Part shown: piece by piece, positions 4,212 through 45,670 of the stretch | Layout of the letters: each line of letters begins with the position of its first letter | Numbering within the stretch: the stretch's first letter is position 1 | IMG/VR virus record: IMGVR_UViG_3300047481_001036 | Origin: a virus | Strand: one strand, 5' to 3' | Length of the DNA: 64,000 nucleotides | Notes under the pieces: model-generated | What the model saw: the letters and a program-made list of their open reading frames with translations, nothing else | Told to the model about the DNA's origin: nothing | The model's database searches: none | Translations under genes and position numbers: made by a program

Positions 4212-4410
4212 CCTATAGTTGAACAAGAATAACTTATGGAGAATAAATAGTGAGTCCTCATCCTTTAGATACTGTTACGGTGTTTATCAATGATGCAGAA
4301 AAATATGGTCTTGTGCCAGAGGTTATTTTGTCTGCTCTTTTATATATGAAAAATAATCCAGATCGTGAAATTGAAGATGCGATAAGTTATGGTTTTTATG
4401 AGTGGATAAA

Positions 4411-5629: not shown

Positions 5630-5631
5630 AT

Positions 5632-7551: not shown

Positions 7552-7558
7552 TTCTCTA

Positions 7559-7586
7559 TTGACAACAAGTGATAGTGTGGTATAGT
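7559..7586 (+). promoter_or_regulatory. sigma70-type promoter
   Basis: TTGACA-16nt-TATAGT with TG extension. Confidence 0.75.
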
Positions 7587-7608
7587 CCAGATATACAGAG
7601 CGAAAACA

Positions 7609-8058: not shown

Positions 8059-8070
8059 TTTGTACATTTA

Positions 8071-11000: not shown

Positions 11001-11204
11001 GAACTTATTATAGATATTCATTACAATCCTAATATATCTAAAAAACCATACTTATGTAGAGTTTTTGGTTATGATGGCTTAGTAGACGCTCGTTTAGACT
11101 CTAAAGAATTGTTAAGATTAAGTGAGAGTTTAGCCGATTGTTTATTTGACAAACCAGACGTTAAAGACTATAATGACTGTTTTACTGAGAAAGACGAGAA
11201 TTAG
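8071..11204 (+). other. hypothetical phage ORFs (8071-8307, 8307-8582, 8548-8979, 8976-9737, 9728-9955, 9952-10443, 10430-10717, 10714-10965, 10962-11204)
   Basis: Co-oriented coupled ORFs; 8548-8979 has GDGW...QIKEKFGGL and a CxxC motif, a pattern common in phage hypotheticals. Confidence 0.8.
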
Positions 11205-11212
11205 GTAACGCA

Positions 11213-11818
11213 ATGAGTATAACACTTATAGGTGATGTTCATGGTAAGTATGAACGCTACCATAGAATCATTAGAGAAAAAGACAGACATCCATTTACTG
11301 TACAATTAGGTGACTTTGGTTTCAATTATGAAACATTAAAAAACGTCGATCCTAAACATCATGTATTTATAGGAGGTAATCACGACAACTATGATAAGGT
11401 TACGGATGTTCCTAACTATCTTGGTGACTATGGATATATGGTGAACTTTAATAGCATAGATTTTTTCTATTATCGTGGAGCATGGAGTATCGATCAGATA
11501 TACCGTACTATAGGAATAGACTGGTGGGAACAAGAGCAGGTAAAAATTGAAAGCTTTATGAAGGCTAGAGAACTTTATCGTCAAGTTAAACCAGATATTG
11601 TATTAACTCATGATTGTCCAGAAAGTGTTGCCCATTATCTTATACCTCCAAATGGTAGGATATTTCAGCAAAATACTGGTTGGGCATTACAGGAACTATT
11701 CAATATACATCAGCCTAAATATTGGTATTTTGGACATTGGCATAAAAGTTGGTCTATGACTATTAATGGAACACAGTTTAAATGTCTAAATGAACTAGAG
11801 ATTGACACCATAGGATAG
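11213..11818 (+). CDS. calcineurin-like metallophosphoesterase
   Basis: GDVHG, QLGDFG, GNHD, THDCP, FGHWH motifs. Confidence 0.9.
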   Translation: MSITLIGDVHGKYERYHRIIREKDRHPFTVQLGDFGFNYETLKNVDPKHHVFIGGNHDNYDKVTDVPNYLGDYGYMVNFNSIDFFYYRGAWSIDQIYRTIGIDWWEQEQVKIESFMKARELYRQVKPDIVLTHDCPESVAHYLIPPNGRIFQQNTGWALQELFNIHQPKYWYFGHWHKSWSMTINGTQFKCLNELEIDTIG

Positions 11819-11829
11819 TCTGGTATAAT
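11802..11829 (+). promoter_or_regulatory. sigma70-type promoter
   Basis: TTGACA-16nt-TATAAT with TG extension. Confidence 0.8.
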
Positions 11830-11938
11830 GGTATTGTTGATGCCGCAAGGTAGAGATCGCGGGTATTCTCACAATCAACTTCCGTAGACTTTTAGCACGG
11901 TTTTGTGTAAGACTGAAAATCTTGCTTTATTTTATAAT

Positions 11939-12538
11939 ATGCTAACTGTAATTAAAAAACCCTATAATAGTATATTGATACAATCAGATTCTCAAAAAGA
12001 ACTTGTTTATTCTTTAATGAGATTTCAAGAGTATTATGAAAACCCTAAATTTAGACATCAAATTTTTACTATAGGAGTTTTAAAACAGTGGTATAGCCAA
12101 CAATATGGAGCAGATACTTATGCTAAAGATTGGGTAGGATTTAATTTTCCTAGTTATGTGTTAGATCCATTTAGGCAAGGACTATTTGATCCTCTTACCA
12201 AATATGAACAAGCAGTTATCGATCTGTTTAGATATAGAACCAACAATTTCTATATTATAGGTTCAAATAGTGACGAAGTAACGAAACACGAATTACACCA
12301 TGCTTTATACTATTATAGCACAGAGTATAAGACACATATTGACAAAATCTTTCAAAAATCAAAAAATTTGTCCGTTAAACAAGCAATAAGTAAACTGCTA
12401 AATAAAGGTTATCATAAAGAAGTAGTATATGATGAACTACAAGCATATATACTAGATGATGATCAAAATTTTATATCATCTATTATAGATTCTGGTATAA
12501 AAAGCAAGGTAACACGCCTCTATAATAAATACAAATGA
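11939..12538 (+). CDS. hypothetical protein with HExxH (zincin-like) motif
   Basis: RFQEYYE...KHELHHALY. Confidence 0.55.
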   Translation: MLTVIKKPYNSILIQSDSQKELVYSLMRFQEYYENPKFRHQIFTIGVLKQWYSQQYGADTYAKDWVGFNFPSYVLDPFRQGLFDPLTKYEQAVIDLFRYRTNNFYIIGSNSDEVTKHELHHALYYYSTEYKTHIDKIFQKSKNLSVKQAISKLLNKGYHKEVVYDELQAYILDDDQNFISSIIDSGIKSKVTRLYNKYK

Positions 12539-15447: not shown

Positions 15448-16808
15448 TAAGTGGAAAAACATTAATTGATTTAGGATATCAACCGTCTAAATGGTTTAGT
15501 TCTGTCATAGAGTATGCTAATACTAATGATCTTAATACAGAACAATTGCATAACCATATAAGTTCAATACTTCCTAAAGTTGTTGAACCATTGTCTAATC
15601 CTATAGATTTTCACAAAAATATTCTGGCCGACAATGAGCATGAGTTGAAAAATATAAAGTCTGTTTATGAGGCTATGAACTCTTTGCTCACAATACCCAC
15701 AGCAGTAGATGCTGCGGTAATGCCAGATGCTTGTCCTACAGGTAAAGATGAAATTCCTGTGGGTGGGATAATAGCAACTAAAAATGCTATTCATCCTCGT
15801 ATGCACAGTGCGGATATATGCTGTTCAGTTATGGCTACTGATTTAGGACATACCGATCCTAGAAAAGTAATGGATGTTGCTTTTGAAACTACTCATTTTG
15901 GAATAGGCGGAAGAGATAGAAACGATCAATTAATAAGACTTCCTCTTGATCTTAAAGAGAAAATACAAAGCAACTATTATCTGAATAGTGATAAAAGTTT
16001 AAAGTATGCTCATAGTCACCTTGGTACTCAGGGTGATGGTAATCATTTTCTGTTTGTTGGAATAAGCAAGAGTAATAATCATACTTACTTAGTTACTCAT
16101 CATGGTAGCAGAGGATTCGGGGCCAATCTTTACAATGAAGGAGTATACAAAGCTGAATCTTTCCGCAAAGAAATAGCCCCCAATGTTAGTAGTAAAAATG
16201 CGTGGATTCCTTTTGATACTAAAGAGGGTCAGGATTATTGGGAGGCTCTTCAGATAGTACGAGAATGGACAAAAGTAAATCATGAATCTTTACATGACTC
16301 TATAAGAAATAAGGTTAAGGGTTCTGTATATTCAGAAAGATTCTGGAATGAACATAATTTTGTATTTAAGAAAGATGATGTATTCTATCATGCCAAGGGG
16401 GCTACTCCTATGGATGATAGTTTTGTTCCAGACTCATACAATGGGCTTAGACTTATTCCTTTAAACATGAGCCAACCTATACTGGTAGTAAAAGGTTTAG
16501 AAAACAATAATGGTCTTGGATTTGCTCCTCATGGTGCTGGACGCAACTTTAGTAGATCAGAACATAAAAGAAATAGATTAGTTGACAAAACATCGGAAGA
16601 ATTATTCTACGAGGAAACAACTGGTCTTGACGTTAGATTTTTTTCTGGTAAGATAGACATAAGTGAGTTGCCTAGTGCTTACAAAAATGCCGAAAAAATC
16701 AAACAACAAATTAGTCATTTTAATCTAGGAACAGTTGTAGATGAAATAGAACCCTATGGGTGTATCATGGCGGGACATATAGAAAAGCCGTGGAGAAAAA
16801 AGAAATGA
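15444..16808 (+). CDS. rtcB: RNA ligase RtcB family
   Basis: MPDAC, SADICCS, LGTQGDGNHF, HHGSRG, HNF, HAKGA, PHGAGR, ELPSAYK motifs. Confidence 0.93.
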   Translation: MISGKTLIDLGYQPSKWFSSVIEYANTNDLNTEQLHNHISSILPKVVEPLSNPIDFHKNILADNEHELKNIKSVYEAMNSLLTIPTAVDAAVMPDACPTGKDEIPVGGIIATKNAIHPRMHSADICCSVMATDLGHTDPRKVMDVAFETTHFGIGGRDRNDQLIRLPLDLKEKIQSNYYLNSDKSLKYAHSHLGTQGDGNHFLFVGISKSNNHTYLVTHHGSRGFGANLYNEGVYKAESFRKEIAPNVSSKNAWIPFDTKEGQDYWEALQIVREWTKVNHESLHDSIRNKVKGSVYSERFWNEHNFVFKKDDVFYHAKGATPMDDSFVPDSYNGLRLIPLNMSQPILVVKGLENNNGLGFAPHGAGRNFSRSEHKRNRLVDKTSEELFYEETTGLDVRFFSGKIDISELPSAYKNAEKIKQQISHFNLGTVVDEIEPYGCIMAGHIEKPWRKKK

Positions 16809-17029
16809 ATCCTTTATTGAAAATGCTTATTAGCGGAATACTTGCAACATCGGTTTCGATTATTCTTACGCTTATCTATTATTATGCTTGTTATATTCTT
16901 GTGATGTATTTTAAATATAATTACGGAAACGACAACTATTGGGTATTTGGTCATTGTTTTGTTTTGCTTATTATCTCTTGGATATTTAGCTTCGGATTCT
17001 TTGCTTCAACAATAGGAGATAATTTGTGA
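16805..17029 (+). CDS. small membrane protein
   Basis: Two hydrophobic segments. Confidence 0.6.
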   Translation: MNPLLKMLISGILATSVSIILTLIYYYACYILVMYFKYNYGNDNYWVFGHCFVLLIISWIFSFGFFASTIGDNL

Positions 17030-17322
17030 AAGGTCCGTTAATTTATTACGAAATTAAAGATATGTATGGTACAGACTTGTCTAGTACGAAATTATCATCA
17101 GAATTACGCAAGAGTGTGCTAGAAGAAATTGATCTGGGTTTTAATGTTGAGATTGATTTCAAAGGAGTTAGATCTATTAGTAATGGTTGGGCTAGAAACC
17201 TAATAGGCGTTATCGTAAAAGAAAAAGGTGAAAGTTTTGTCAAAAATCATATTTTACTTAGTAATATGAACAAAGGTGTTAGACAAACAATCTTAGAAGG
17301 AACATCGGAAATACTAACATGA
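17026..17322 (+). CDS. STAS-like domain protein (DUF4325-like)
   Basis: L.S....LR...VEIDFKGVRSISNGWA..LIG pattern. Confidence 0.7.
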   Translation: MKGPLIYYEIKDMYGTDLSSTKLSSELRKSVLEEIDLGFNVEIDFKGVRSISNGWARNLIGVIVKEKGESFVKNHILLSNMNKGVRQTILEGTSEILT

Positions 17323-17541
17323 CATTTGAAGAATTTCAAACCAAAATAGACGATACGTTTATGGCTAATCAACCACCAAAAGTTCTTGCTACTAATCGGT
17401 GGAGATATGGTCAAACAATAATGAATGTTTTACACGATGTTTGGCATCAAAAATATCTTGAAATTAGCGATTCAGATATGGATTGTTTTTATACTAATTG
17501 TAATGTTGCTATAGTTTTGAATAAACTAGAAAAAGAGTGGC

Positions 17542-18564
17542 ATGAGAAAGTTAGCTAGTATACAAAAGATCAAATATGTTAAACCTATACCGGATGCTGA
17601 TAGTATAGAAACTGTCGGAATTTTAGGTTGGGAGTGCGTTAGCAATAAAGGAGAATTTCAACCAGATGATCTTTGTGTTTATTTTGAGATAGACTCCTTA
17701 CTACCAGAGATTCCAGAGTTTGAGTTTCTACGCAAAAGTTGTTGGAATGATTCTCTCAAAAAGTTTAGACTCAAAACAATAAAACTACGCAAACAACTAA
17801 GTCAGGGTTTAGCATTACCAATAAGTGTATTTCCTAAACTAGCAGAGTTGGCCGTTGGAGATGATGTTAGTGAACTATTAGGAATAGAAAAATATGAGCC
17901 ACCAATTCCGGCAGCAATAGTTGGTGATGCAAGAAGGTTCTTGTGGCCTATTAGTAAAACTGATGAGGTTAGGGTTCAGTTAGATGATGAATATAAGTTC
18001 ATTGAGACTCTCACAGGGCGACCATACTACATTAGTTTAAAACTAGATGGTACGAGCAGCACCTTTTTAATCGACCCCTCAGACGAGACTTTTCACGTTT
18101 GTGGGCGAAATTTTAGCTACCAAAACAAAAAAGAGCATAGTTTTTGGCAAATAGCTGAAAGGTACAATATTGAGCAGGGATTAAGAGACTTGTGGAATGA
18201 GGGCAGAAAAATTGCTATACAGGGAGAGGTTGTTGCTCCCGGTGTGCAAAAAAACCCACTAGGTTTACCAATAGCAGATTTGTATGTTTTTAATGTTGTA
18301 GATATTCCTACTAATACTAAATTGTGTTTGGATGATAGTTTGAGTATTGTTGAGCGATTAGGTTTAAAATTTGTGCCGGTACTTGAAAAAGGTGAAAGTT
18401 TCGGGTATACTGTAGACGATCTATTGGAACTGGCACAGGGCAAATATGTTCAACACTTCTTATCTGCTAAACCCTCTCAAGAAAGAGAAGGAATAGTAAT
18501 AAGGGACATTTTTGGAACAGTTAGTTTTAAGGCTATTAATAATCAATTTCTATTGAAGGAATAA
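17542..18564 (+). CDS. ATP-dependent RNA ligase, DRB0094/Rnl5-like
   Basis: N-terminal RKLASIQ..IPDAD.IE..VYFEIDS; KLDGTS motif I, QGE, EREGIV, FKAINNQFL. Confidence 0.9.
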   Translation: MRKLASIQKIKYVKPIPDADSIETVGILGWECVSNKGEFQPDDLCVYFEIDSLLPEIPEFEFLRKSCWNDSLKKFRLKTIKLRKQLSQGLALPISVFPKLAELAVGDDVSELLGIEKYEPPIPAAIVGDARRFLWPISKTDEVRVQLDDEYKFIETLTGRPYYISLKLDGTSSTFLIDPSDETFHVCGRNFSYQNKKEHSFWQIAERYNIEQGLRDLWNEGRKIAIQGEVVAPGVQKNPLGLPIADLYVFNVVDIPTNTKLCLDDSLSIVERLGLKFVPVLEKGESFGYTVDDLLELAQGKYVQHFLSAKPSQEREGIVIRDIFGTVSFKAINNQFLLKE

Positions 18565-18565
18565 T

Positions 18566-19782
18566 ATGAAGCAATATAAAGCTGGCCTTGGTCTTTTCCT
18601 TACGATCTTGATAGTCGCACTAATTTTTATAGTGATCGGCCCGTTCATTCAAATCTGGGCAGTTAATACTCTATTCAAAACAACCGTAGAATACTCTTGG
18701 TTGAATTGGGCTTGTGTTATTATTCTTAATAGTAGTATTAGTGCATTTTCTTATAAGGGAAAGTAATGAACTATTTTCCTATAGAAGATAATAATAGTAA
18801 TTTTGGTTTGGTAGAGATTAAAACTACTAATAATTGTAACCCAACCCCTCATTGCAAAATACACGGGGCTATGAATTGTGTTGCTGTTCATAAGAATGGT
18901 AAGTTATGGCGATGTATACAAAGTAATCAATTAAAAGATTGCAGAGCAGGATGTGAGGAAAAATATGAATAGTTTCCTAAAAGGATTTTTTAGTCTATTC
19001 GATTGGACTAGTCCTAAAAGTCTGGATGAAAGTATTAATGATCTTGACAATCAGATGCAAGACTTGTATGATCGAATGGGTTGGGGAGAATATAAAAAAC
19101 CTTCACCTATGAGCGGCTGGAACGATGCCTGCGATTTTAATAGGGTATTAGAAACAAATCAAGATTTAGTCAATGATATTTATGGATATAATTTTAGAAA
19201 AATAGTTACCAAAGAGTTTCATAAACCTATGATAAAAGATCCAGCAAGACCCAGGGTTCATAAATACTATGATAGATAATAATAAGATCACTATAACAAC
19301 TTCACAACAATTTTTAGACCAGATGATGAAATTGGTTCCATCCGGCTGTTTCCAGCCTTATGCTTATTATAATCAGGATATAGATGCTATAGAATGTTAT
19401 TTTAAAGATGAAAATTGTTACACTAAAACTTTAAATGATACGATAGAATTACATTTATCATTTGACAATGAACAGGTGGTTGGGGTAAATATTCTTGGTA
19501 TTAAAAAATTGATGCAAGATAAGGTGGGTTTAAATGAATAATCTTATACAAAAATGGATAATCTATCATCCTAGAACACAAAGTTTTATTACTGGTAGTC
19601 CATTTAATTATACCAAAAATCCTGAATTGGCAAGGATTTATAATAATTACTCAGACGCCATAATGGCTTGTAATAATCACTACAATAAGGAAGAAAAAGA
19701 GTTTGGAGAAGGACATCATCCGGTAGAATTACGCTTTCATTTTAATCCTAAAACCTTGAATAAAGTAAAAGAAGATGACTAA
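18566..19782 (+). other. hypothetical ORFs (18566-18766, 18766-18972, 18965-19279, 19269-19541, 19534-19782)
   Basis: Co-oriented coupled ORFs. Confidence 0.75.
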
Positions 19783-19957
19783 ACTAACTAATAATGAAAT
19801 AGATATTTTACAGGCACTAATTCAAAAAAGACTTAATGAAATGGGCGACTCTCCAGAAGGAGCAGAAGTTTATTTTAAACCAGAGATTTTAGCAAAGATA
19901 AGAAACAAACTAGACAAGATGCTATTTCAGTGAAAGGAGAAAATAATAAGTGATATC

Positions 19958-20531
19958 ATGATATATTTCACATCTGATACTCACTTTGGTTAGCCTTCGG
20001 GCTAACTAAGGTCATAATAATATAATCAAGCATTGTAATCGTCCATTTGATAATGTTCATATAATGGATCAAGTTATACTCGACAGAATAAATGAAACTG
20101 TGGGGGCTGATGATACTCTGTATATACTGGGCGATTTTTGTTTCAGAGGCAAGAAACCTATAGAATATCGTTCACGAATAGTTTGTCAGAATATTTTCCT
20201 CATAAGAGGCAACCACGATAAACTGTCTGATTATAATGATAATCTTCAAGGTTTTATTTCGATAGAAGAAGCCAAAGAAATAATATATTGTAATCAAAGA
20301 ATATATCTACTTCACTACCCTTGTCGTTCGTGGCCCGCCTCTCATAAGGGCAGTTATCATCTGTATGCTCATTGTCATGGCAAACTAGATCATGAAGATA
20401 AAGAGTCAAAACGAAAAACTCTGGACGTTGGTGTTGACAATACTGTAAATTACAATAAGCCGTTTGGAGAGCCGTGGAGTTTCAAGGAAATACAAAAACT
20501 GTTCAATAGTAAGGATAAAAATGAACGATAA
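19958..20531 (+). CDS. metallophosphoesterase interrupted by a 22-nt coding gap (segments 19958-19990 and 20013-20531)
   Basis: MIYFTSDTHFG + HNNIIKHCNRPF... joins into the canonical N-terminus; downstream LGDF, RGNHD, LHYP, HCHG, DVGVD motifs. Confidence 0.85.
19986..20012 (+). promoter_or_regulatory. putative translational bypass (hop) element, T4 gene 60-like
   Basis: GGT(take-off)-TAG inside a 10-bp stem with cUUCGg loop, followed by a matching GGT landing codon. Confidence 0.75.
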
Positions 20532-20814
20532 AGAATTCCTTAACTGGATTATTACCAGACTAACTAATATGTTTGGAGATGATCCTAACGCTGATTTCAT
20601 CCATAGGCTCCGTAATATCGCTAATAAATCAGAAGAACTATCATTAAGAATAAAGTTAGGCGATTTATTTGACGAAACTAAGGTCGATACTTGGCTACAC
20701 AAACCCAATAAAGCATTTGATAATAAGCGACCAATAGATTTAATTCATGAAGGAAATACCGACCCCATATATAAAATGATTTATATTTGGGAAAGCGGGG
20801 AGCCGTTGCTATGA
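20521..20814 (+). CDS. Xre/MbcA/ParS antitoxin C-terminal-like domain protein
   Basis: F.....WLHKPNKAFDNKRPIDLI..G signature. Confidence 0.75.
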   Translation: MNDKEFLNWIITRLTNMFGDDPNADFIHRLRNIANKSEELSLRIKLGDLFDETKVDTWLHKPNKAFDNKRPIDLIHEGNTDPIYKMIYIWESGEPLL

Positions 20815-22641
20815 ACCAAAACGACTTTAACAAATTGCTTTTAATCCGCAAACTGCTTAAAGAAGCATACGATCATGTTTTTCATAATGATCCTGACTGT
20901 GGGCATAAAAGCCAAGAGGGTCATATTAGCGTAGAGTTTGGCAATTATTGGGAAGATAAAAAATGTGAAATGAAAATTACATCAATCAGTATTTATAGTT
21001 ATGTTTTTGGTCATACTAGAACTCATTGTTATTACACTCTTGATGAGGCATTAGAGGTTGTAAAAGAGTGGCACAAAAACGAAATGAATACAGACTATGC
21101 TGAACAACGCAGACTAGAAAAAGAATATAATGAGAAACATTATCCTCAAGGTTATTTGATTAATCCAGATATTAAACTGAAGAAAGATTATTGGGGTGGC
21201 CCATCTATCGAATCTTGACAAATTGCTCACTAGTGCTAGAATAAGGTAACATTCGTCATCAACCACAAGGAAAAATTATGAATCTTTTCATTAAGGCTCT
21301 TCAAGATCATTATGCCGCTCAAATCAGCGAGGCAGTTGCTACTCTTAATGTTTATCTAAATGCTAGTGTTGGGGTTGGAGAACACCCAGATCTTCTTACA
21401 GAAATTAAAAAGTATGTAGATTTGCTTGATGATGCTGACGGTAAGTTGGAAACACTCAATAAGTATATGAAAGATACTTCTCCCGAAAAGACAGAATCAC
21501 AAACTAAGGAGTAACTTATGAAAGACCGTTTTAATCTTGAAGAAGAAATTAGTATCATTCATACTTTTGCCGATCAGTTGGGTACTCTTAGCGAAGGTAT
21601 TCTTGAACATGAACTAACCAATGATGAAATTGTAAATGTAATTGAGGGTATGAGAGTGATGCTAAATCTTCATGCTCAAAAGTTACACGATACTATGGCT
21701 CAGTGTTTTCATTTGGATAACTACAAAGACTCTCATTTTTCATCTATTAAAGATCTAGGCTAATGATAATTAGAGTCGATATTAAAACAGATTGTTCTGA
21801 TTGTCTATACTATAAAGATAACAGAGAATGGTCTGTAATTCATAAATCTAAAACTAGATTAAGTGAATATGAAAGAGAAGAACTGTTAAAAACTATTAAT
21901 TTTGATCCTGCTAAGGATAGTGTCTATTTATATAGAATGATTCATCCAGACGGATCTGTTTCTCTTGTTTCTTCAATAAATAAAGCAATAGGTAAATTAT
22001 CTTGTAGAAAGTGTGCTTAATATGCTTAAAGCATTGGCCGAGAATGTAAAAGTTGGAGATATTGTCTACAATCTTTTTATGCAAAAGTTGGTGGTTGGTT
22101 CTATAAGCCAAGGCGATAACAATATAGTTTTTACCGTTGTTGATACCGGATTAAATCCTCATGCATACTCATATGAGGATATTTATCTTGAGGATTTTTA
22201 TGGTGAGAGCGATGAAGAAAAAAATTGGATAAATTGGGCTAAAAATAATAAAGAATTTATTAATACATTTGATCACTTGTCAACAATAAAATGGATATAT
22301 CAACAAGGTTTTGCTGATGGTTTTGTTTATCGTAAAAAAATCTCTTTTGAAGAAATGATGCAAAAATAATGTTGTGGTCGCACATAAGGTCTTGGGCTAA
22401 AGAAAAAGGATATAAGTCTGATAGGACTAAATTAAGCAAAGATACTGATGAAGAAGAGACACATTATCTATATAAATGGTCTAAAATTAGCGATGAATCA
22501 ATAAATGGTGAGGCTAGTAGTGTATCTAAACTAGCCAAAGCTATTTTTAATCATATAACTAATAATGCTCACATAGAGTATCAGATGGAATATCTTTCTA
22601 AATTAGAATCCGAAGATATAAACTATGAAAAACCAATTTGA
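20811..22641 (+). other. hypothetical ORFs (20811-21218, 21278-21514, 21518-21763, 21763-22020, 22013-22369, 22369-22641)
   Basis: Co-oriented ORFs; 21278 has the VGVGEHPD motif seen in T4-like phage hypotheticals. Confidence 0.75.
21215..21242 (+). promoter_or_regulatory. sigma70-type promoter
   Basis: TTGACA-16nt-TAGAAT with TG extension. Confidence 0.7.
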
Positions 22642-22778
22642 GTCCGAAAAGACACAAAAGCAATGTGTAACAATTAGTATAAGTAGCATCATTGCGTCTA
22701 TAATTAATGGTATCATCTCCTATATTGCTGCTTATTTTTTCCAGCCAGTTTGGACTAAATTAGTAAGGTGGTGGAAGA

Positions 22779-31261: not shown

Positions 31262-31289
31262 TGTGTGAAACACAGGAGACTTATTGGAA

Positions 31290-32609
31290 ATGAAAAACGA
31301 GCATCATTTTGATTATGTTTGGGGAATGGTTCGTGATCTTAGGGCGACTAGCAGCACTATTGATAAGCAAGGTATTATTGAAGACTATTGTAACCATAGT
31401 AGTAGTGCTGCAAATTTTACTAAGAAAATTCTGCTCTATACCTACCATCCTTTATGGCAGTATAATGTTACCAGCGATAATCTAAAGAAAAAGAACCATC
31501 TTATTGCACGAAAGAACGAGTACAATAATTTCTTTAATCTGCTGGATGATCTAAAAGATCGCAAGATTACTGGTCACGACGCTATTGCTGCTGTTAATAG
31601 TTTTATCGAACATAATGATGAGTATGAGGAACTTATTCATTGTATTATTGATAAAGACTTGAAAACCCGTGCTGGCGACAAGATTATTAATAAGGCTATC
31701 GAAGATCATATTCCAGAATTTAGCGTTGCTCTGGCCGATAAATATGAACCTAGTATTGTAGACTGGAAGGATGGATGGTATGTTAGCAGGAAAATTGACG
31801 GTGCTAGATGTATCGCTATTGTTGATGATAGTGGTAACGCTACTTTCTACTCCCGCACGGGAAAAAGTTTTGATACTCTTGACGTTGTTGCTGGTGGTAT
31901 TAAGGCTCTCGGTATTACTAATGTAGTTTTGGACGGAGAACTTTGTTTGGTCGATGAAGATGGGAACGAAGACTTCCAAGGAATTATGAAACAACTCAAA
32001 AAGAAAGATCATACTATTCCAAATCCTTCATATAAGATTTTCGATGCTATAACCCATGATGAGTTTTATAGTAAGAAGGGTGCCTACAATAGACCATATT
32101 CTATTAGGCTTGCTGATCTAATTGGGGCCATGAGGTTTAATGAATGTCCATGTTTGACTGTTCTTGAACAAGACCTTATTAAAAATGATGATCATTTTGC
32201 TGAGTGGGTTTCTAAGTCCACCAAGCAAAAATGGGAAGGTCTTATGCTTCGTGCTGATGAACCATATAAGGGAAAGAGAAGCAAAGATTTGCTCAAATAT
32301 AAGAGTTTCTTTGATGATGAATACGAAGTAATCGACACAGAAATGGGGCCGTTCCGATATGTACTAAATGGGAAAGAGCATGAGGAAACCATGTTGTCTT
32401 GTGTAATGATTTCCCATAAAGGACATACTGTTAGAGTTGGTAGCGGATTCTCTATTGAACAAAGACAGGAATTTTATAAGCGTCCAGAGAATATTCTTGG
32501 TAAAATCATCACTGTGCAATACTTTGAACAAACTAAAAATCAAGATGGAGGGATCAGTCTTAGGTTTCCCACATTTAAAATCTTGCATGGTAGCAGCAGG
32601 GACACTTAA
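31290..32609 (+). CDS. ATP-dependent DNA ligase
   Basis: SRKIDGAR motif I, LDGEL, FD, EGLMLR, KRSKDLLKYK, VGSGFS, LRFP. Confidence 0.95.
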   Translation: MKNEHHFDYVWGMVRDLRATSSTIDKQGIIEDYCNHSSSAANFTKKILLYTYHPLWQYNVTSDNLKKKNHLIARKNEYNNFFNLLDDLKDRKITGHDAIAAVNSFIEHNDEYEELIHCIIDKDLKTRAGDKIINKAIEDHIPEFSVALADKYEPSIVDWKDGWYVSRKIDGARCIAIVDDSGNATFYSRTGKSFDTLDVVAGGIKALGITNVVLDGELCLVDEDGNEDFQGIMKQLKKKDHTIPNPSYKIFDAITHDEFYSKKGAYNRPYSIRLADLIGAMRFNECPCLTVLEQDLIKNDDHFAEWVSKSTKQKWEGLMLRADEPYKGKRSKDLLKYKSFFDDEYEVIDTEMGPFRYVLNGKEHEETMLSCVMISHKGHTVRVGSGFSIEQRQEFYKRPENILGKIITVQYFEQTKNQDGGISLRFPTFKILHGSSRDT

Positions 32610-33234: not shown

Positions 33235-33269
33235 CGTGACATACCTTGGAAACACTTTTTGGAGAAACA

Positions 33270-33980
33270 ATGAGCGAAGTTAGTATTGAAAAAACACCAA
33301 TTGTTATGAGTACCAGCAAGGCCGACGAATTTTTTAGGAACTTTCCTAAAGATAAGGTGGTCGCCTATAAGGATTATTGGGAGAGTATTCGTCCGAATAG
33401 TCATGATGAAATTTTTCGTAGATATCTTTTTGCCTATATGAGTGTCCATACCACTTGGAAATCTAATGTTGCTGGATATAATGCTATTAAGAATTTCAGT
33501 GAATGGCTAGACGATAAAGAACTGCTCAGAGAAAAGATCAAGCATAGTGGGTGCGGACTTTACAATAACCGCACAAAGTTTATTTGGGATTTTAAGGATA
33601 AATTCTGGGCGAATCCCAAAGATTTTTATCTTACTACTAAGAAGTATCATGTTAAGAAAAGAGATCAGATTGTAAATAATATATCTGGACTCGGAACTGC
33701 TAAGGTTTCATTCGCTCTTGAACAATCTCATCCTAATGAATGTAGAGTCTTTTGTGGTGATACACATATGCTTGAACTTTATGGCATGAAAACATTGACA
33801 TATCAATCTAAAAAAGGACTTGAACTGTACAAGAAAATGGAAAGACACTGGAGTGTTAATTGCGGTAAAATAGGCGTACCAGCATATATTGCTAGATCTA
33901 TTTTTTGGGATGCCAAGCAAAATAAGACTGATTCACGATACTGGTCTTACGTCTTTGAAGAAGAATCTATTACTATATAA
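33270..33980 (+). CDS. HhH-GPD glycosylase-like protein
   Basis: ISGLGTAKVSFALE...CGDTHML. Confidence 0.65.
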   Translation: MSEVSIEKTPIVMSTSKADEFFRNFPKDKVVAYKDYWESIRPNSHDEIFRRYLFAYMSVHTTWKSNVAGYNAIKNFSEWLDDKELLREKIKHSGCGLYNNRTKFIWDFKDKFWANPKDFYLTTKKYHVKKRDQIVNNISGLGTAKVSFALEQSHPNECRVFCGDTHMLELYGMKTLTYQSKKGLELYKKMERHWSVNCGKIGVPAYIARSIFWDAKQNKTDSRYWSYVFEEESITI

Positions 33981-38538: not shown

Positions 38539-38630
38539 GGATTTAAACAACCTACTGGTTTTGAGAGCAATGATTTAAAAAAGCTGTCAGAACTGATTCT
38601 AAGCGGTTCAAATTTTTTCAAGTCCAGCAG

Positions 38631-38658
38631 TTGACAAACCCGATACCAATGATAGAAT
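38631..38658 (+). promoter_or_regulatory. sigma70-type promoter with CCGATA spacer motif
   Basis: TTGACA-aacCCGATAccaatga-TAGAAT. Confidence 0.8.
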
Positions 38659-38733
38659 GAATGAGTCGATCAGAGGTTTCGGTCGTGTGACTGACTTAAG
38701 GATCGATTGGATTAAAGATTTTGGAGGTTGATT

Positions 38734-39015
38734 ATGGCTGAAGTTACTACTCTTGATAAGCAGACCAGAGTGCGTTGTTCTGACGAAAAGTTTCTTGAAG
38801 CAGTTTTTTCCAGCAAGACTTATGCTGAGATTGCTACTAAGACAGGTCAGAAGGTTGCTAGCACAATGGCTCGTTATGCTCGTACCAAGGCTGCACTGTC
38901 CAAGAAGGGTATTGAACTGCCCGCTATGGAACGTGCGAAGCCTACAAAGACAGTTGACAATGTTGAGGCTATGGCTCAGGTTGTGGCTCGTCTTAAGGCC
39001 CATGCTAACGGTTGA
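38734..39015 (+). CDS. small basic protein, possibly DNA-binding
   Basis: GGAGG RBS; TYAEIATKTG helix-turn-helix-like segment. Confidence 0.6.
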   Translation: MAEVTTLDKQTRVRCSDEKFLEAVFSSKTYAEIATKTGQKVASTMARYARTKAALSKKGIELPAMERAKPTKTVDNVEAMAQVVARLKAHANG

Positions 39016-39109
39016 TTAAAAAACTAAAGACTCCGACTACATAAGTTAAGTGAGAGGCACACAAGTATAGTCAACCTCAAATCTATGACTTGTGTAGTCG
39101 GGGGATTAT

Positions 39110-39395
39110 GGCCTCTTGGCGTAATAGGCAGCCGCAACGGACTTATACAATTTGAGTGCTTAGGAGGAAACCCCTAAAGTAGAATCGCTTAAATTCGGTG
39201 AAAGCTTAACTGCTAATACCGAGCCAAGTCTGAGTAATCAGAAAGGTGTAGAGACTAAACAGGCGATACCTAAAACTAGAAGTAGTTAAGGTAAAGATAT
39301 AGTCCAGACCACAAACAGAAATGGCAACGAAAGTTGTAGTGGTAAGAAAATCCGTTGGGAGTAATCCCGTGTGGGTTCAAGTCCCACAGAGGCCA
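39110..39395 (+). tRNA. trnL: tRNA-Leu(UAA), intron-split (exons 39110-39144 and 39347-39395)
   Basis: Acceptor GGCCTCT/AGAGGCC, anticodon arm ACGGA-CTT^AAAA-TCCGT, long variable arm, T-arm GTGGG-TTCAAGT-CCCAC; CCA not encoded. Confidence 0.92.
39145..39346 (+). mobile_element. group I intron (ORF-less, 202 nt) in the tRNA anticodon
   Basis: P1 with U39144:G39154 wobble, core motifs AAATTCGGTGAA, GAGACTA, AAGATATAGTCC, terminal G; position U34^A35 as in bacterial/plastid trnL(UAA) introns. Confidence 0.9.
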
Positions 39396-39420
39396 CTGTA
39401 GTGTGATAAGTAGAGAAATA

Positions 39421-39463
39421 AATCTCTTTGGTGTAGTCTAAATTAGACTACATCAAGGAGATT
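39421..39463 (+). promoter_or_regulatory. 20-bp hairpin sequestering the RBS of the HNH gene
   Basis: AATCTCTTTGGTGTAGTCTA-aat-TAGACTACATCAAGGAGATT. Confidence 0.8.
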
Positions 39464-39466
39464 ATT

Positions 39467-39943
39467 ATGAAAAAATGTCGTAAGTGTCAACAAGAGTTTC
39501 CTAATAGAATAAAAGTTAATGGATCAATAAAAGTCTTAAACAGAAGAAAATATTGTTTGGAATGTTCCCCATTCGGACAAAGAAACACTAGGAAACTACA
39601 TCTTCCTCAAACTCAAAGAGATAAAAATACCAAAAAGAATTGCCCTCAATGCGGAAGAGATTTTAAATGGAACAAAAACAATGTTTGTTGGACCTGTAGA
39701 TCTTTTAATAGAAGAAAAAATAATAGATCTAAAGGACTCAAATATCTAGGAGCTAAATGTAAACGCTGTAAAAACAAAGATATTGAAGTATTAACTTTTC
39801 ATCATACTGATCGGGAAAATAAATATGATAATCTATCAAGCTTATGGCATCGAGAATGGTCTATTATACAAACAGAATTAGACAAATGCGAACTTCTTTG
39901 TGCCAATTGTCACATGAAATTACATAGAAAAGAAAACTTATGA
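39467..39943 (+). CDS. free-standing HNH endonuclease with N-terminal Zn fingers
   Basis: Several CxxC; C..C...LTFHH.D...KCELLCANCH...H. Confidence 0.85.
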   Translation: MKKCRKCQQEFPNRIKVNGSIKVLNRRKYCLECSPFGQRNTRKLHLPQTQRDKNTKKNCPQCGRDFKWNKNNVCWTCRSFNRRKNNRSKGLKYLGAKCKRCKNKDIEVLTFHHTDRENKYDNLSSLWHREWSIIQTELDKCELLCANCHMKLHRKENL

Positions 39944-42057
39944 CATTCGATCAATGGCTCCATCAAGACGAAGGGTTTGGCCCAAGAATAGATCGAATGA
40001 TGGATGATATAAAAGTTTCTGTTGAACAAGAACGAACAGACTCTATAATTAAGTGGCTCATGGCAGCGTATACTATGGGTCATGGTCAGGGATATGATAT
40101 AGGATATTCAGATGGTTATAACGACTGTGAAGAAAGTAAGGACATATAATGACTAAAAACACACTAGAAATCTATAAAATAGGTAGTAAGGTTAAATTGG
40201 CTGACGATATACATGGTTCTATCACAGCAATTTGTATTCGTGGTAATAATTATATAACATATGAATGTAGTTGGTGGAACGGCCGCTCCCACGATAATAA
40301 GTGGTTTTATGCTGATGAGATAGAGGTTACTACTGGCGAAAAAACAAAAATAGGCTTTGCATAAATATGTTAGAGTATTCTAATCCATTAGACTATATCT
40401 TGCGTTGTACAGAACAGGGCTTGGTTCCTAAGTTATTTACTGTGCAAAATGCTAAAGATGAACTTAAAAAACTTAGGCAACAGCTAGAAGCATTTAAAGT
40501 AGTAGCATATGGAAAAATCAATCATAATAATGATTTATATGATTTAAGACTACAAAATAATCCATATGATGATCAACAAAAAGTAATTTACTTATATTCT
40601 AATACTTTAAATAGTAATAAAAATGGTTAGTTTACCTAATAGACTATTCAGAGGAATTGTTAAAAATCCTACGGAAAAATATAAGCATCCAAACTTTCAA
40701 TATATCATAGTAGATACTGTCAGAGAAATACAAGATATTGAAGGAAACTGGCATACCGATAGTTTTGAGTCTTATGATGAGTATCTTTTGCATAATCCCG
40801 ATTATGGAGATATATTTTATGTTGTATACGGATCTTATTGGATCGATATTCCGTTAAGTAGTATTAAAATTACTGAAACAGATAGTTTAAATCAGGCCAT
40901 AAATATAGCTGAAGCTATTATGGGATCTTCTATAACAGAAATAGCACTACTTAAAAAGTAATAAGGTAAATATTATGTCAAATAATCAGACTCCTAATTT
41001 AGAGGCTGTTATAGATTTTGCTTGGGCTTCTGGTGCTTCTATAGAACTAATAAATGAAGCAAAAAGGGAACTAAAAAATTTGGTAGAGTCTTTGCTATTA
41101 TCAAAAACAATACTAGATTAAATTAATACGATAACTAATTACTATAAAGGATAAATTATGCCATATATTAAAGAAGAAAACAGGGCTCAATTAGATGGAT
41201 GTATAGAGGATATGATGTATTGTTTGCGTGGTAATGTTAGTCCAAACACAGATAATCCCCACTCAAATCCCTATAAAGAGAAACTAACTAATGACGAGTT
41301 TTTAACAATATGTGGGGATATCAATTATGCTTTTTCTCGGATTATATCGGGAGTAATGGGTGATGTTTCATATCCTAAGATTGCTATCATTACTGGTGTA
41401 TTAGAGAATATCAAGCAAGAATTTTATAGGCGTATAGCATCCGTATATGAAGATCAAAAAATCATTCAAAATGGCGATATACCAGAATACAAAAGGAGAA
41501 GCTAATGTCTAAAGATATTAATGACATTATGAAGGAAGTAATTAAAAGCGGAAAAGAGATACATAGAGTAGATACTAAATTTTCTAAAGAAATCATTGGT
41601 CTTCAAAAAGATGTAGAAGGCTTACATAAAGATATAAAAGTAATTGCTTCCAAAATAGATCTAATTTTAGACCTATTAAATAGTTTAACTATCTTTATAG
41701 AAGAAGAAGATGAGTCTTTAGATGACGATGACGATGAATATCAATCTAATGAGGGCTGGCTACCAGAAGTTAATAATTGGGAAGAAAAATACTTGGAAGA
41801 TGAAGATGAAGAGGAATTAGATGGCTAGTTTGGCTTTATTAGCTTCTCTAGTATTTTTATTGATTCTGTTTATTGGTCCAATTACTTATTTTTTGACTAA
41901 AATAGGATTACCTTCATTTATAATATGGATTTTAGCAAGTTTTTGTATTGTTTCGGGATGCTGGTTTGCTATAACTTTGCCTCATATATTTTATATAGGA
42001 CTTATTCCTATATATTATGGTTATATCAGTATTACAGCAACTAGCCAGAAATACTGA
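39940..42057 (+). other. hypothetical ORFs (39940-40149, 40149-40364, 40367-40630, 40623-40961, 41158-41505, 41505-41828, 41821-42057)
   Basis: Co-oriented ORFs; 41158 has MPYI...GDINY...EFYRR...YED.KI..NGD, a recurrent phage family. Confidence 0.75.
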
Positions 42058-42060
42058 TGC

Positions 42061-42089
42061 TTGACAAAGGGCAAAGTCGATAGTATACT
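42061..42089 (+). promoter_or_regulatory. sigma70-type promoter
   Basis: TTGACA-aagggcaaagTCGATAg-TATACT. Confidence 0.8.
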
Positions 42090-42128
42090 TGGGAGATCAC
42101 GGGTTAAACGACACTTTGGAGATTTAAA

Positions 42129-44783
42129 ATGAAGTTGGCAGACAGGACAGTTGAAATTCATTCTGCGGGTATTCAGTCCGCTAATCAGTTTAGTATCGCA
42201 CAGACCAGCAAAATGTTTAAAATCCTTTCGGATTCTCTATATTCCGATAAGGTTATGGCGGTTATTCGTGAGTTGAGTACCAACGCTTACGACGCACATA
42301 TTGCTGCAAAAAATCAGAATCCTTTTAAGGTTACTCTACCAACACAAACAAATCCTTCTTTTACAGTAAGAGACTTTGGCACTGGTCTTAGTCAGGCCGA
42401 TATGGAGGAATTGTATACCACATACGGAGCCTCTAACAAAAACGATAGCAATGATTTTGTTGGTTGTCTTGGTCTTGGTAGTAAAAGCCCGTTTGCTTAT
42501 ACCAAGAGCTTTAGTACTATTTCTTATTATAATGGTAAGAAGCTCTCTTATATCGCCGCTATGGATGAATCTGGGGTTCCTAGTCTGAATCTTATTAAAG
42601 TATCAGATACTAGTGAACCTAATGGTCTTGAAATTAGTTTTGCTGTAAAACAATTTGATTTTCATGAGTTTACATCTAAGGCAAAGAGAATCTTTCATTA
42701 TTTCAAACTTAAGCCGATCATTAATGGCGGTGTTTGCTCATCGGTAAATGATGGTTCTTATTCTCATACCAATATTGTAATCGATGGTAAGGGATGGAAG
42801 ATTGGTCGAGTTAGTAACGACCATACTAAATATCCTAGCAGTCATAATAGTCCCGGTAGTGGTGTTGTTGCTATCATGGGTAATATTGCATATCCAGTAG
42901 ATTCTAGCAAGATTATTGGTGAGGAAAGGCCAGATCAACCAGACCACATTCAGAAGTGGAATAGAGCCTTTGGTAAGGCAGACGTTGATAACTGGAAGCA
43001 TCTAGTTCAAGAGATTCTTAATGCTGGATTGTATCTTGAGATCCAATTTGGTATTGGTGAACTAGAAATGGATGTAAGCAGAGAGGGTTTGCAGTATACC
43101 AAGCAAGTTATCAAAGCACTCAGAGAAAAAACTCAAGATATTTATTTGCAACTTAAACAGGATATGAGCGATAAGTTGTCTACTGCCAAGAATTTGGTCG
43201 AGGCTTATCAAACATATTATAATCTGAGTGATCTTGCTGGAGGCTGGACTGCTGGTGCATCTTGGAAAGACCCTAATGGCAAGACGCATGAGTTGCAGTC
43301 TGGAAAAGATCTAGAGTATACTCTTAAAAAGAGTAAGCAATTGTATGTGTTTAACTTTAGAACTGCTGGTTATCGCTCTCGCAGAATGGTTTATCTAACG
43401 GACAAAATCCATTCTGAAACATTGAATGGTAAAGGTGCGTATTACTGGCAGAATAACCGTAAGACCAATCCTATTGCTTTCTTTGTTTGTGATGTTAAGG
43501 GAGAAGAGTCTGCTAAGAAGATCGTGACAAAGTATTGTAATCAGAATGATTGCTATGCTTATCTAATGATTGATAGCGACCATCCAGAAGATTCATCTGA
43601 AGGTTTTGATAAGATCGTCGCTGATATTGGGGGCGAATCAAATCTACTTAAAGTATCGGATTATCGTAGTCTGCTGGCTAGTGTAAACCCCCGTAAAAGC
43701 AGGGGTTCTACCGGAACTATTAGTAAGGATGAAATCTTTGCTATTACTGATCTAGGAGCAGATAAGGATTGCAAGGTCTTGGGCGGAAATGATCTTAATG
43801 ATTCTGGCTTCCTAAAGGAACTGTCAGAAACTCTAGTAGACTATATCGAAGATGGGGATAATGAGATTGTATATATTCCGATTGTTAGATATTCTTCTGT
43901 TGAAGGTTATCCTGCTATCAACAAAATTGTTGCTCTTGCTCGGGACGAAAATATCGTTATCGGTAAGAAACTTTTTGATAGTCAGAAGATTTTTGCGATC
44001 AAGCAAAGTTCGGTTGATAAACTCAAGAAAAATGGTATCAATCTGGTAACTTTTAATGAATGGTTTAAAAAGTATGTGCAGAAGATTGAATCTAAACTCT
44101 CAGAAAGTGTTTCAGTATACAAAGATGTGATCGAGTATTGTCAAAAAGAGTTTGAGAGTAACGATCCTGCTTATAACGGCGGTTATTACTACGGTTGTAA
44201 GCAATCAGATAGACAGATTATGTATCATATCTTTAATATTTTTGGTTTGGATTATGCCAAGCATATTAAGAATCAGGATATGATTGAATTGATTGACCAA
44301 TGGCTTCTGATAGAGTTCTTTACTGATACTATCAATAAAGATCAATTTGATATCAGAAGGTTTGATAAAACAGAATACTTTGTTTTGTTGACCAAGATAC
44401 TGGCTAAATATGAACTTAACGGACTTGATCCTGCAAAAATTAGGACTAATCATATTAGTCTAAAGGTGTTGCATCATAAGTTGTCCGATATGTACGGTGC
44501 TGAAACCAACCCTATAACAAAGTCCTTGTCTCATAAGAGCAATTCTAATATTGTAGCCAAATTGCCGAAGATGAGCGAACTGAGAAAAAATCTTAAAGAA
44601 CAGGTTGACAAAGCACCGATGTTGAAGTATATTGTGGGTGTGAGCGAGACTAATGGTAATATCCGAAGTCTCCATAGTCAGAATCCTATCAAGGCTTTTT
44701 CCGATAGTTATAGAGGCAAGCCGGAATGGGTTTCTAAAATTGATGCGGAAGCATTTAGACAAAGTTTGGGTAGTTTGATTTAA
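42129..44783 (+). CDS. rIIA: rIIA-like protein (N-terminal GHKL/HATPase)
   Basis: LYSDK..VIRELSTNAYDAH, VRDFGTGL, GCLGLGSKSPFAY, SREGL; paired with rIIB. Confidence 0.88.
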   Translation: MKLADRTVEIHSAGIQSANQFSIAQTSKMFKILSDSLYSDKVMAVIRELSTNAYDAHIAAKNQNPFKVTLPTQTNPSFTVRDFGTGLSQADMEELYTTYGASNKNDSNDFVGCLGLGSKSPFAYTKSFSTISYYNGKKLSYIAAMDESGVPSLNLIKVSDTSEPNGLEISFAVKQFDFHEFTSKAKRIFHYFKLKPIINGGVCSSVNDGSYSHTNIVIDGKGWKIGRVSNDHTKYPSSHNSPGSGVVAIMGNIAYPVDSSKIIGEERPDQPDHIQKWNRAFGKADVDNWKHLVQEILNAGLYLEIQFGIGELEMDVSREGLQYTKQVIKALREKTQDIYLQLKQDMSDKLSTAKNLVEAYQTYYNLSDLAGGWTAGASWKDPNGKTHELQSGKDLEYTLKKSKQLYVFNFRTAGYRSRRMVYLTDKIHSETLNGKGAYYWQNNRKTNPIAFFVCDVKGEESAKKIVTKYCNQNDCYAYLMIDSDHPEDSSEGFDKIVADIGGESNLLKVSDYRSLLASVNPRKSRGSTGTISKDEIFAITDLGADKDCKVLGGNDLNDSGFLKELSETLVDYIEDGDNEIVYIPIVRYSSVEGYPAINKIVALARDENIVIGKKLFDSQKIFAIKQSSVDKLKKNGINLVTFNEWFKKYVQKIESKLSESVSVYKDVIEYCQKEFESNDPAYNGGYYYGCKQSDRQIMYHIFNIFGLDYAKHIKNQDMIELIDQWLLIEFFTDTINKDQFDIRRFDKTEYFVLLTKILAKYELNGLDPAKIRTNHISLKVLHHKLSDMYGAETNPITKSLSHKSNSNIVAKLPKMSELRKNLKEQVDKAPMLKYIVGVSETNGNIRSLHSQNPIKAFSDSYRGKPEWVSKIDAEAFRQSLGSLI

Positions 44784-44809
44784 TTTCACAGGAAAACAGG
44801 AGAAGAATA

Positions 44810-45670
44810 ATGAGTGTTCCTTTTATGTGGGTTGACGGTAATCTGACTCTGATCCTTAATAATAAGGCTCATCAGATTCTTCCAGATCACCTTAATTATA
44901 AGCTGATTATGGAAAGGCTGAGTTCTGCTACGGAAGATGAATTGCTGGAGTTGGTGGATATTGAAAGTGCCGTAGCATCATTTAGTGATGGTGCTGTAGA
45001 GGTTAAGAATGGCAAGGTGTTCTATGATGGCGAAGAAGTTCATGGTGCTATCAGCAAGCGTATTCTTGAGTTTATGAGCAAGGGTCTGCCTTTCCAGCCG
45101 CTTGTTAATTTTCTCAATAATCTGATGGACAATCCAAGTATGCAGAGCCAGACAGAACTATATGATTTTCTTGAGCATCAATATCTGCCGATTACTGAGG
45201 ATGGTCACTTTCTAGCATATAAGGCAGTACGCAGCGATTATATGGATAAGTATCGTGGTACATTTGATAATCATGTTGGTAATGTTTGTGAAATGAAACG
45301 AGCAAAGGTTGACGATAATCGCGGAGTTGGTTGCTCTCAGGGTCTTCACGCTGGGGCTTTGAATTATGTTGCTGGCTATGGTAGTGTCGAGGCCGGTGAT
45401 AAGATTGTTATTGTTAAGATTAATCCCAAGGATGTTGTTAGTGTTCCCAATGACTGCAACTGCGAAAAACTTCGTACTTGCAGATATGAAGTAGTTGGAG
45501 AATATCAAGGTGAACTTCTTAAGCCACTCTATAAGAGCGACTTTAGTGAAGATGAATACTATGATGAAGAAGAGAGTCTTTATGACGAATATGACAATGA
45601 TTATTGGGATCAGTTCTATGAGGACGATGATGAAGAAGAAGATGATTACGAAGACGAAGATCAGTATTGA
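44810..45670 (+). CDS. rIIB: rIIB-like protein with acidic tail
   Basis: NPS...ELYDFL...ITEDGHFLAYKAV, CSQGLH, VVSVP.D...KLRTCRYEVV. Confidence 0.88.
   Translation: MSVPFMWVDGNLTLILNNKAHQILPDHLNYKLIMERLSSATEDELLELVDIESAVASFSDGAVEVKNGKVFYDGEEVHGAISKRILEFMSKGLPFQPLVNFLNNLMDNPSMQSQTELYDFLEHQYLPITEDGHFLAYKAVRSDYMDKYRGTFDNHVGNVCEMKRAKVDDNRGVGCSQGLHAGALNYVAGYGSVEAGDKIVIVKINPKDVVSVPNDCNCEKLRTCRYEVVGEYQGELLKPLYKSDFSEDEYYDEEESLYDEYDNDYWDQFYEDDDEEEDDYEDEDQY

Follow-up and report, generated by a model that had tools for sequence, protein, structure and literature searches.

Codon classes around rIIA, rIIB and an intron-split tRNA-Leu(UAA) gene suggest T4-type graded stratification of codon use in a freshwater phage family

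The viral record IMGVR_UViG_3300047481_001036 was analysed over a stretch of 64,000 nucleotides (hereafter, the window), which has a guanine plus cytosine (GC) content of 32.6% and genes densely packed on the + strand. The locus considered here, 38631-45670, comprises a sigma70-type promoter, a small gene, a transfer RNA (tRNA) gene for leucine, tRNA-Leu(UAA), split by a group I intron, an HNH endonuclease gene, seven further small genes, and the rIIA and rIIB genes (Table 1). The rIIA gene was identified by tblastn to annotated rIIA genes (28-36% identity) and by an N-terminal HATPase_c_3 domain, and rIIB by a match to phrog_609 (E 4e-71). This report concerns the use of the Leu codon TTA and of other A-ending codons in these and other genes of the window and its relatives, and the relation of this codon use to promoters and to phage-borne tRNAs. 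No near-identical phage was found in GenBank, and a megablast of 38600-46000 against a phage collection gave no match. With rIIA as the query, 80 related loci of viruses were retrieved (49-76% identity), a number of which lie in complete genomes of 150-233 kb; genome-wide tests were made on the complete relatives G001, G003, G005 and G006. The sequencing runs that contain window DNA are freshwater/aquatic DNA metagenomes, with no RNA run among them.

Table 1. Positions of the features discussed, with codon counts (TTA per Leu codons, ATA per Ile codons, AAA or AAG per Lys codons)
Feature	Position	Strand	Remarks
Early region rich in promoters, about 60 small genes	1..22700	+	Partial TTA-only deficit; TTA 29% of Leu
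Gene for a 78-amino-acid (aa) protein	21278..21514	+	Promoter 21215; TTA 0/10
thyX	23446-24108		TTA 11/21
ATP-dependent DNA ligase gene	31284..32609	+	Promoter 31233; TTA 1/32, ATA 1/36, AAA 21/41
Ogg/HhH-like glycosylase gene	33246..33980	+	Promoter 33206; TTA 0/14
Terminator-like hairpin and T run	38590..38609	+	Ends the upstream module
Sigma70-type promoter	38631..38658	+	TTGACA, 16 nt, TG-n-TAGAAT; 11/12 matches
Gene for a 93-aa protein	38734..39015	+	Weak helix-turn-helix (sigma70 region 4) match; TTA 0/5, ATA 0, AAG 11/11
tRNA-Leu(UAA), 5' exon	39110..39144	+	Last base U34
Group I intron	39145..39346	+	202 nt, no ORF (open reading frame); U.G pair at 5' splice site, terminal G
tRNA-Leu(UAA), 3' exon	39347..39395	+	From A35; long variable arm, A73, CCA not encoded
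Free-standing HNH endonuclease gene	39467..39943	+	About 70 nt 3' of the tRNA; TTA 6/14
Seven small genes, HNH gene to rIIA	39940..42057	+	
Sigma70-type promoter before rIIA	42061..42089	+	
rIIA	42129..44783	+	884 aa; TTA 0/69, ATA 3/67, AAA 36/85
Sigma70-type promoter before rIIB	44605..44633	+	Within the rIIA 3' end
rIIB	44810..45670	+	286 aa; TTA 0/26, ATA 0/10, AAA 2/16
Actin-fold (Volactin) gene	49577-50578		TTA 19/25

The tRNA-Leu(UAA) is missed both by default ARAGORN and by a whole-window Rfam scan at gathering thresholds. ARAGORN with the intron option places it at 39110-39396 with a 202-nt intron, and the joined exons form an 84-nt class II cloverleaf with A73 that is again called tRNA-Leu(UAA). 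In a local Rfam scan the intron matches Intron_gpI (RF00028) over the full model with 73.9 bits against a gathering score of 50 (E 1e-17). Its insertion point is in the anticodon loop, with U34 before it and A35 after it. As read from the sequence, a guide sequence GAGU can pair with exon ACUU to give the U.G pair of the splice site. A tRNA-Phe with a 2909-nt intron spanning rIIA, also proposed by ARAGORN, was rejected as spurious. A preliminary description of this locus had noted that the only tRNA of the window is this intron-split one and that it stands behind a sigma70-type promoter. ARAGORN and Rfam bear this out, with the near-consensus promoter at 38631 and the gene for the 93-aa protein upstream.

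TTA is the commonest Leu codon of the window (566 of 1512; 37%). The same description had reported TTA to be apparently absent from rIIA, rIIB and the genes at 38734-39015, 33270-33980 (here 33246-33980) and 21278-21514, to occur once in the DNA ligase gene, and to abound in thyX, the actin-fold gene and the glycosyltransferase genes; counting agrees on every gene (Table 1; the two glycosyltransferase-like genes have 28/47 and 10/28). The absence from rIIA has a binomial probability of 1e-17 at a 43% rate and of 5e-11 at the 29% rate of the early region, and the corresponding values are 1e-4 for rIIB and 2e-4 for the ligase; the 0/5 of 38734-39015 is uninformative on its own. Seven high-bias genes together have TTA at 2 of 162 Leu codons, as against about 42-43% in other genes. 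In the same genes ATA is nearly absent (8/139, 6%, as against 43%) and AAA is halved (39% as against 81% elsewhere), which the first reading had missed.

In-frame TTA occupies 0.09% of positions in the seven genes, a depletion of about 40-fold, and TTA in the other two frames (4.9% and 1.9%) is as frequent as in other genes. This indicates that the cause acts on translation and not on a DNA motif. The log2 odds ratios are -5.3 for TTA/TTG, -3.5 for ATA and -2.7 for AAA/AAG, with other NNA/NNG pairs at -0.3 to -2.2 and CTA, CCA and GAA nearly unchanged, so the bias is neither uniform over A-ending codons nor confined to TTA. A TTA loss beyond a general A-ending or third-position GC (GC3) effect is thus supported in part: the TTA depletion exceeds that of the other pairs and GC3 is unchanged in the early block, but the genes first named also lose ATA and AAA.

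These genes lie behind strong promoters. Sequences matching TTGACA-N16-18-TATAAT with at most one mismatch number 18 on the + strand and 1 on the - strand, as compared with 0.74 in shuffled sequences, and a copy lies 12-180 nt upstream of each gene singled out in the preliminary description, as it had claimed. Its further expectation that TTA use follows promoter class is also borne out: TTA makes up 34 of 274 Leu codons in the first genes behind strong promoters and 532 of 1238 elsewhere (Mann-Whitney p 6e-4). Many strong promoters (38631, 2050, 24909, 27187, 28121 and 33206) share a CGATA(C) spacer motif and a TG before the -10 element, a feature that suggests a promoter subclass or a regulator site.

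A second, weaker layer of TTA avoidance covers the early region as a whole. The per-gene median of TTA/Leu is 0.29 in the first 22.7 kb and 0.50 at 34-64 kb (Mann-Whitney p 2.8e-8), with ATA (p 0.3), AAA (p 0.73), A at four-fold sites and GC3 alike in the two regions. The deficit recurs in G001 (0.29 as against 0.39-0.44). Specificity for TTA is therefore seen in the bulk of early genes, whereas in rIIA, rIIB and the ligase ATA and AAA also fall. UvdE (3/28), a phosphoesterase (0/12) and a deaminase-like gene (1/12) are poor in TTA and normal in ATA and AAA. The phosphoesterase gene (20064-20531), with ATA at 11 of 13, is the clearest single-gene case of avoidance of TTA only.

Streptomyces bldA encodes a tRNA-Leu(UAA) that controls TTA-containing developmental genes. 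The preliminary description proposed a similar gate. In such a scheme UUA is decoded too poorly in the host to be of use, genes without TTA are the only ones expressed at first, and middle and late expression is licensed by the mature phage tRNA-Leu(UAA), self-splicing setting the time. The parallel lies in the same codon and anticodon and in the supply of one tRNA limiting a set of genes. A gate of this kind would account for the 0/95 of rIIA plus rIIB, for the TTA-only early deficit, repeated in G001 whose sole tRNA is Leu(UAA), for the TTA-poor UvdE, phosphoesterase and deaminase-like genes, and for TTA heading the depletion in every comparison. It is, however, quite unlikely, as TTA occurs in 51 of 60 early-region genes and in 11 of 16 promoter-proximal ones, and the eight genes that follow the tRNA (39467-42057, HNH gene included) use it for 30 of 67 Leu codons. 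In Streptomyces TTA is a rare codon limited to a few genes with regulatory roles. In this phage TTA is used more than any other Leu codon, is present in most early genes and marks no small regulon, so that any effect can only be graded. Self-splicing would also be a poor timer, since group I introns are usually spliced within minutes or faster in vivo.

The bias of the rII genes extends through the related loci. In 20 distinct phages with a UAA tRNA, the TTA count of rIIA plus rIIB is 64/1803 (3.5%), as compared with 37% in the other genes of those loci, and the bias of rIIA is retained in orthologs down to 49% identity. In a clade whose tRNA has the anticodon CAA the rIIA/rIIB value is 11.8% instead of 3.5%; this rise was rejected as independent evidence because it corresponds to one to three events on the rIIA tree and because one locus with a UAA tRNA (L039) has 11 TTA codons in rIIA and rIIB.

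Nearly every locus of sufficient length has a tRNA-Leu gene 2.5-3 kb upstream of rIIA, and this is the most conserved tRNA locus of the phage family, a point consistent with the proposed gate as well. The tRNA bodies found there are nevertheless unrelated. Bacterial tRNA-Leu belongs to class II; at this site, besides long-arm forms of 83-87 nt, there are short ones of 74-77 nt that resemble class I and have A73. Varied bodies are found in L007, L009, L010, L011, L048, L054 and others, and L048 and L054 have nearly identical rIIA genes and different tRNA forms. That this site has repeatedly been refilled with the same anticodon argues for strong selection on that decoding capacity. Complete relatives carry either one tRNA (Leu-UAA in G001, Leu-CAA in G005-G007) or 7-11, and the tRNAs of the latter mostly read A-ending codons (Leu-UAA, Ile-UAU, Lys-UUU, Glu-UUC, Gln-UUG, Arg-UCU, Thr-UGU and Gly-UCC).

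One complete relative displays a marked early contrast. In G003 (L405), the segment 20.1-39.4 kb contains 27 consensus promoters, 47 small genes and most of the tRNA genes of the genome, and would be an immediate-early block. TTA stands at 3% in this block and 42% in late genes, AGA at 18 and 70, and AAA at 37 and 76. In-frame TTA is reduced 17-fold and out-of-frame TTA only 1.1- to 2.5-fold. Six of the eight codons most depleted in the block are read by tRNAs of the phage itself, encoded within the block. G001, with its single tRNA, has no block of this kind. The low TTA of the G003 block is what a gate at UUA would predict as well.

Late genes of high abundance have the same bias. In G001 the gene 15564-16574 (L108), which follows the terminase, portal and minor capsid protein genes, encodes the major capsid protein, as judged from a profile match to PDB 6wkk gp27 (E 2e-10) and from Atlas clusters so named; an AlphaFold model built on 16 sequences of this protein reached a pLDDT of 35 and was discarded. 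Over 62 distinct orthologs of this gene TTA, ATA and AAA stand at 12.5%, 4.9% and 35%, as compared with 44.6, 35.9 and 75.7 in neighbouring genes, and two virion proteins have TTA at 1/26 and 1/22. Among the high-bias genes of G001, TTA use is 8/96 in late and 7/178 in early ones (Fisher p 0.16). The earlier claim that the earliest genes avoid TTA therefore holds for the early deficit and for the G003 block, but the avoidance is shared by the capsid gene, and this tells against a gate that opens late genes. Capsid Leu codons do not differ clearly with the anticodon of the phage tRNA: TTA counts are 5-7 in UAA and CAA phages alike among few genomes, and TTG counts are 1-3 in UAA and 3-7 in CAA phages, in too few genomes to be read as a difference. 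The capsid protein is 86-100% identical in the best 80 of at least 598 related viral stretches (L118-L197), whereas rIIA falls to 49%.

The bias common to capsid and virion proteins raises the question of whether expression level by itself is sufficient, so that the codon bias would mark abundant proteins at any time of infection and the tRNA would be retained for another reason. The tRNA-Leu might then be a cleavage-resistant substitute for a host tRNA that is hit by an anticodon nuclease or lost with host DNA. This would fit the RtcB, RNA ligase and transfer-messenger RNA (tmRNA) genes of the window, and the unrelated bodies with the same anticodon, long-arm and short, at one locus, one clade of which has switched to CAA; host-tRNA loss and nuclease escape have been reviewed as hypotheses for phage tRNAs (PMC12482277). 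As the sole cause, however, expression level seems unlikely. It leaves unexplained the TTA-only deficit of ordinary early genes, whose ATA, AAA and GC3 are unchanged, and the fact that the codons depleted in the early block correspond to the tRNAs that the relatives carry.

The explanation that we favour, with a probability of about 0.6, is a graded stratification of codon use of the T4 type, coupled to phage-borne tRNAs. In an AT-rich genome of 32.6% GC, TTA, ATA and AAA would be the default codons. Two groups of genes would have been purged of the A-ending codons that are presumably worst read by the uninfected host, TTA most, then ATA, then AAA and AGA: the genes translated first, from consensus sigma70-type promoters, and the genes translated most heavily. 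In the window these groups would include rIIA, rIIB, the ligase, the glycosylase and the small DNA-binding protein, and in relatives the immediate-early block and the major capsid protein. The tRNA-Leu(UAA) would be driven by an early promoter of the same kind, and removal of its 202-nt group I intron by self-splicing would yield a mature tRNA which, once charged, would add decoding of UUA, and probably of UUR, for the bulk of TTA-rich genes. The effect would be on rate, and not an on/off switch.

Several features speak for this graded scheme. The phages carry tRNAs for heavily used A-ending codons. Their genes fall into discrete codon classes related to abundance and to promoter and timing class, with timing taken from promoters and gene order. 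Codons read by phage tRNAs are under-used early relative to late: in G003 six of the eight most depleted codons have a cognate phage tRNA, and in the window the codon of its only tRNA, TTA, is the most depleted. TTA is the most sensitive codon; the codon/tRNA logic is already known, and this example is an extreme one.

Other points weigh against the same scheme. Poor decoding of UUA by the host is deduced entirely from the codon classes of the phages, gene calls come from an ORF heuristic, and early and late classes were assigned from promoters, gene order and homology. In the capsid gene ATA and AAA are avoided even in phages that carry tRNA-Ile(UAU) and tRNA-Lys(UUU), which implies that the phage tRNAs leave these codons short of fully efficient. 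In phages with only a Leu(CAA) tRNA, TTA is avoided (0/33 in the ligase, 2/27 in rIIB) and TTG is not avoided in early genes, so that the anticodon carried and the codon avoided are only loosely linked. The early block of G003 is GC-richer throughout, 44.7% as against 35% genome-wide and 43.7% in non-ORF DNA, and part of its codon shift may therefore be compositional.

A purely compositional origin, in which TTA-poor genes are GC-richer because they were recently acquired or evolved under another mutational regime, would agree with this enrichment outside ORFs and with the GC3 of the biased genes in the window (0.32 as against 0.21). It is nonetheless highly improbable: TTA is reduced 17- to 40-fold in frame, while out of frame it is unchanged in the window and reduced 1.1- to 2.5-fold in G003; CTA, CCA and GAA hardly shift in the window set; and the bias persists among rIIA orthologs that share as little as 49% identity, as well as in the 62 capsid orthologs.

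The phages with Leu(CAA) as their only tRNA (G005, G006 and G007; L211-L213) have genomes of 122-178 kb, G005 and G006 being rated complete and G007 88%. Their Leu codons are TTG in 11-13% and TTA in 43-55% of cases, and their sole tRNA is not explained by codon supply. Such heavy TTA use in complete phages that encode no UUA reader is a further point against a gate at this codon, and the continued avoidance of TTA in their ligase gene does not fit the idea that the pattern depends on a phage UUA reader.

Stratification of this kind has a precedent in phage T4, whose codon-usage classes are reportedly tied to expression time (Cowe and Sharp 1991, J Mol Evol 33:13) and which has eight tRNAs, for A-ending codons. 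The family resembles T4 in being AT-rich, in having rIIA and rIIB, in tRNAs that read UUA, AUA, AGA, CAA, GGA and ACA, and in discrete codon classes related to timing and abundance. It differs in the near-total exclusion of TTA (0/95 in rIIA plus rIIB; 3% over 47 early genes of a relative), in a tRNA number that ranges from 1 to 11 within the family, and in a Leu tRNA at a fixed site beside rIIA that is sometimes split by an intron. Low-GC T4-like cyanomyoviruses supply tRNAs for their own AT-rich codons (PMC3152331); as there, low GC is maintained here and the phage tRNAs fit viral and not host codons. That study treats whole genomes, whereas the contrast described here lies within one genome and follows promoter class and abundance. 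Late genes and phage tRNAs are treated in PMC12482277.

The intron has a distribution of its own. A homologous intron occupies the same site in seven related phages, and its structure is conserved, with compensatory changes in 28 of 68 predicted pairs among the seven phage copies. It is present in only 7 of about 47 related tRNA loci, and the roughly 40 without it retain the codon pattern; a role for the intron or for self-splicing in timing, as first proposed, is thereby undercut, and so is the gate itself. The intron is an optional and probably selfish passenger. Introns of its family, as recognized by a 16-nt core motif, occur on at least 89 viral contigs. Among the matches listed (L285-L403, IMG/VR contigs, together with the window), tRNA-Leu(UAA) is the commonest host, others being Arg(UCU), Ala(UGC), Asn(GUU) and Leu(CAA), and the insertion follows a U of the anticodon in each of them. 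Several intron-bearing tRNA-Leu(UAA) genes are miscalled by ARAGORN as Tyr or Phe.

If UUA decoding were a true licensing step, with a host that, like TTA-poor bacteria, is essentially unable to read UUA, the earliest proteins encoded without this codon and most of the programme awaiting the phage tRNA(UAA), which we regard as very doubtful, the GTP-dependent self-splicing of this tRNA would make the transition depend on cellular energy, and the spread of the intron among phage tRNA genes with U-starting anticodons would be regulatory and not selfish.

The presence of group I introns in phage tRNA genes, on many contigs, is the less expected point of this analysis. According to a 2014 review, protein genes were the location of every group I intron known from phages at that time (PMC3984707), and literature searches, within the library covered, brought up no later report of such an intron in the tRNA gene of a phage. 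The phage intron resembles those of cyanobacterial and plastid trnL(UAA) and of Azoarcus and Agrobacterium tRNAs (PMC3984707) in its anticodon-loop site after U34, its small size without an ORF, its match to RF00028 and core stems kept by covariation; it differs in that the carrier is a phage.

The HNH gene next to the tRNA was found by PHROGs, and Pfam gave no HNH domain there. HNH genes adjoin long-arm tRNA-Leu genes with or without the intron (the window, L007, L019, L071, L073, L076 and L077), and short intron-bearing tRNAs have no HNH gene alongside. As a homing partner of the intron the HNH protein was therefore rejected, since its gene follows the long-arm tRNA and not the presence of the intron; what it mobilizes may instead be the tRNA cassette.

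Codon classes of this kind reveal translational timing with unusual sharpness, from genome sequence alone, in a freshwater phage family that is uncultured yet abundant, its capsid gene matching more than 599 viral contigs. Such classes could help to predict which genes are immediate-early or highly expressed, and could restrict the choice of host to organisms with poor decoding of UUA and AUA. A search for the host through the capsid gene in genome bins gave matches scattered over unrelated phyla and no consistent signal, the bins being labelled Alphaproteobacteria, Flavobacteriales, Chitinophagia, SAR202, Thermoplasmatales and others.

Other identified genes of the window encode UvdE, RuvB, ThyX, a Volactin-type actin, RtcB, an RNA ligase and glycosyltransferase-like proteins. 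The tmRNA gene (29795-30151) specifies the tag GTTQLALAA. It shares one early region with the RtcB gene (15444-16808) and the Rnl-type RNA ligase gene (17542-18564), and the three form a tRNA-repair and ribosome-rescue kit. Relatives have a tRNA-Ile(UAU) gene immediately before the tmRNA gene; the window lacks it there. Relatives also contain single ORFs of 5989-6196 aa, which are probably tape measure proteins.

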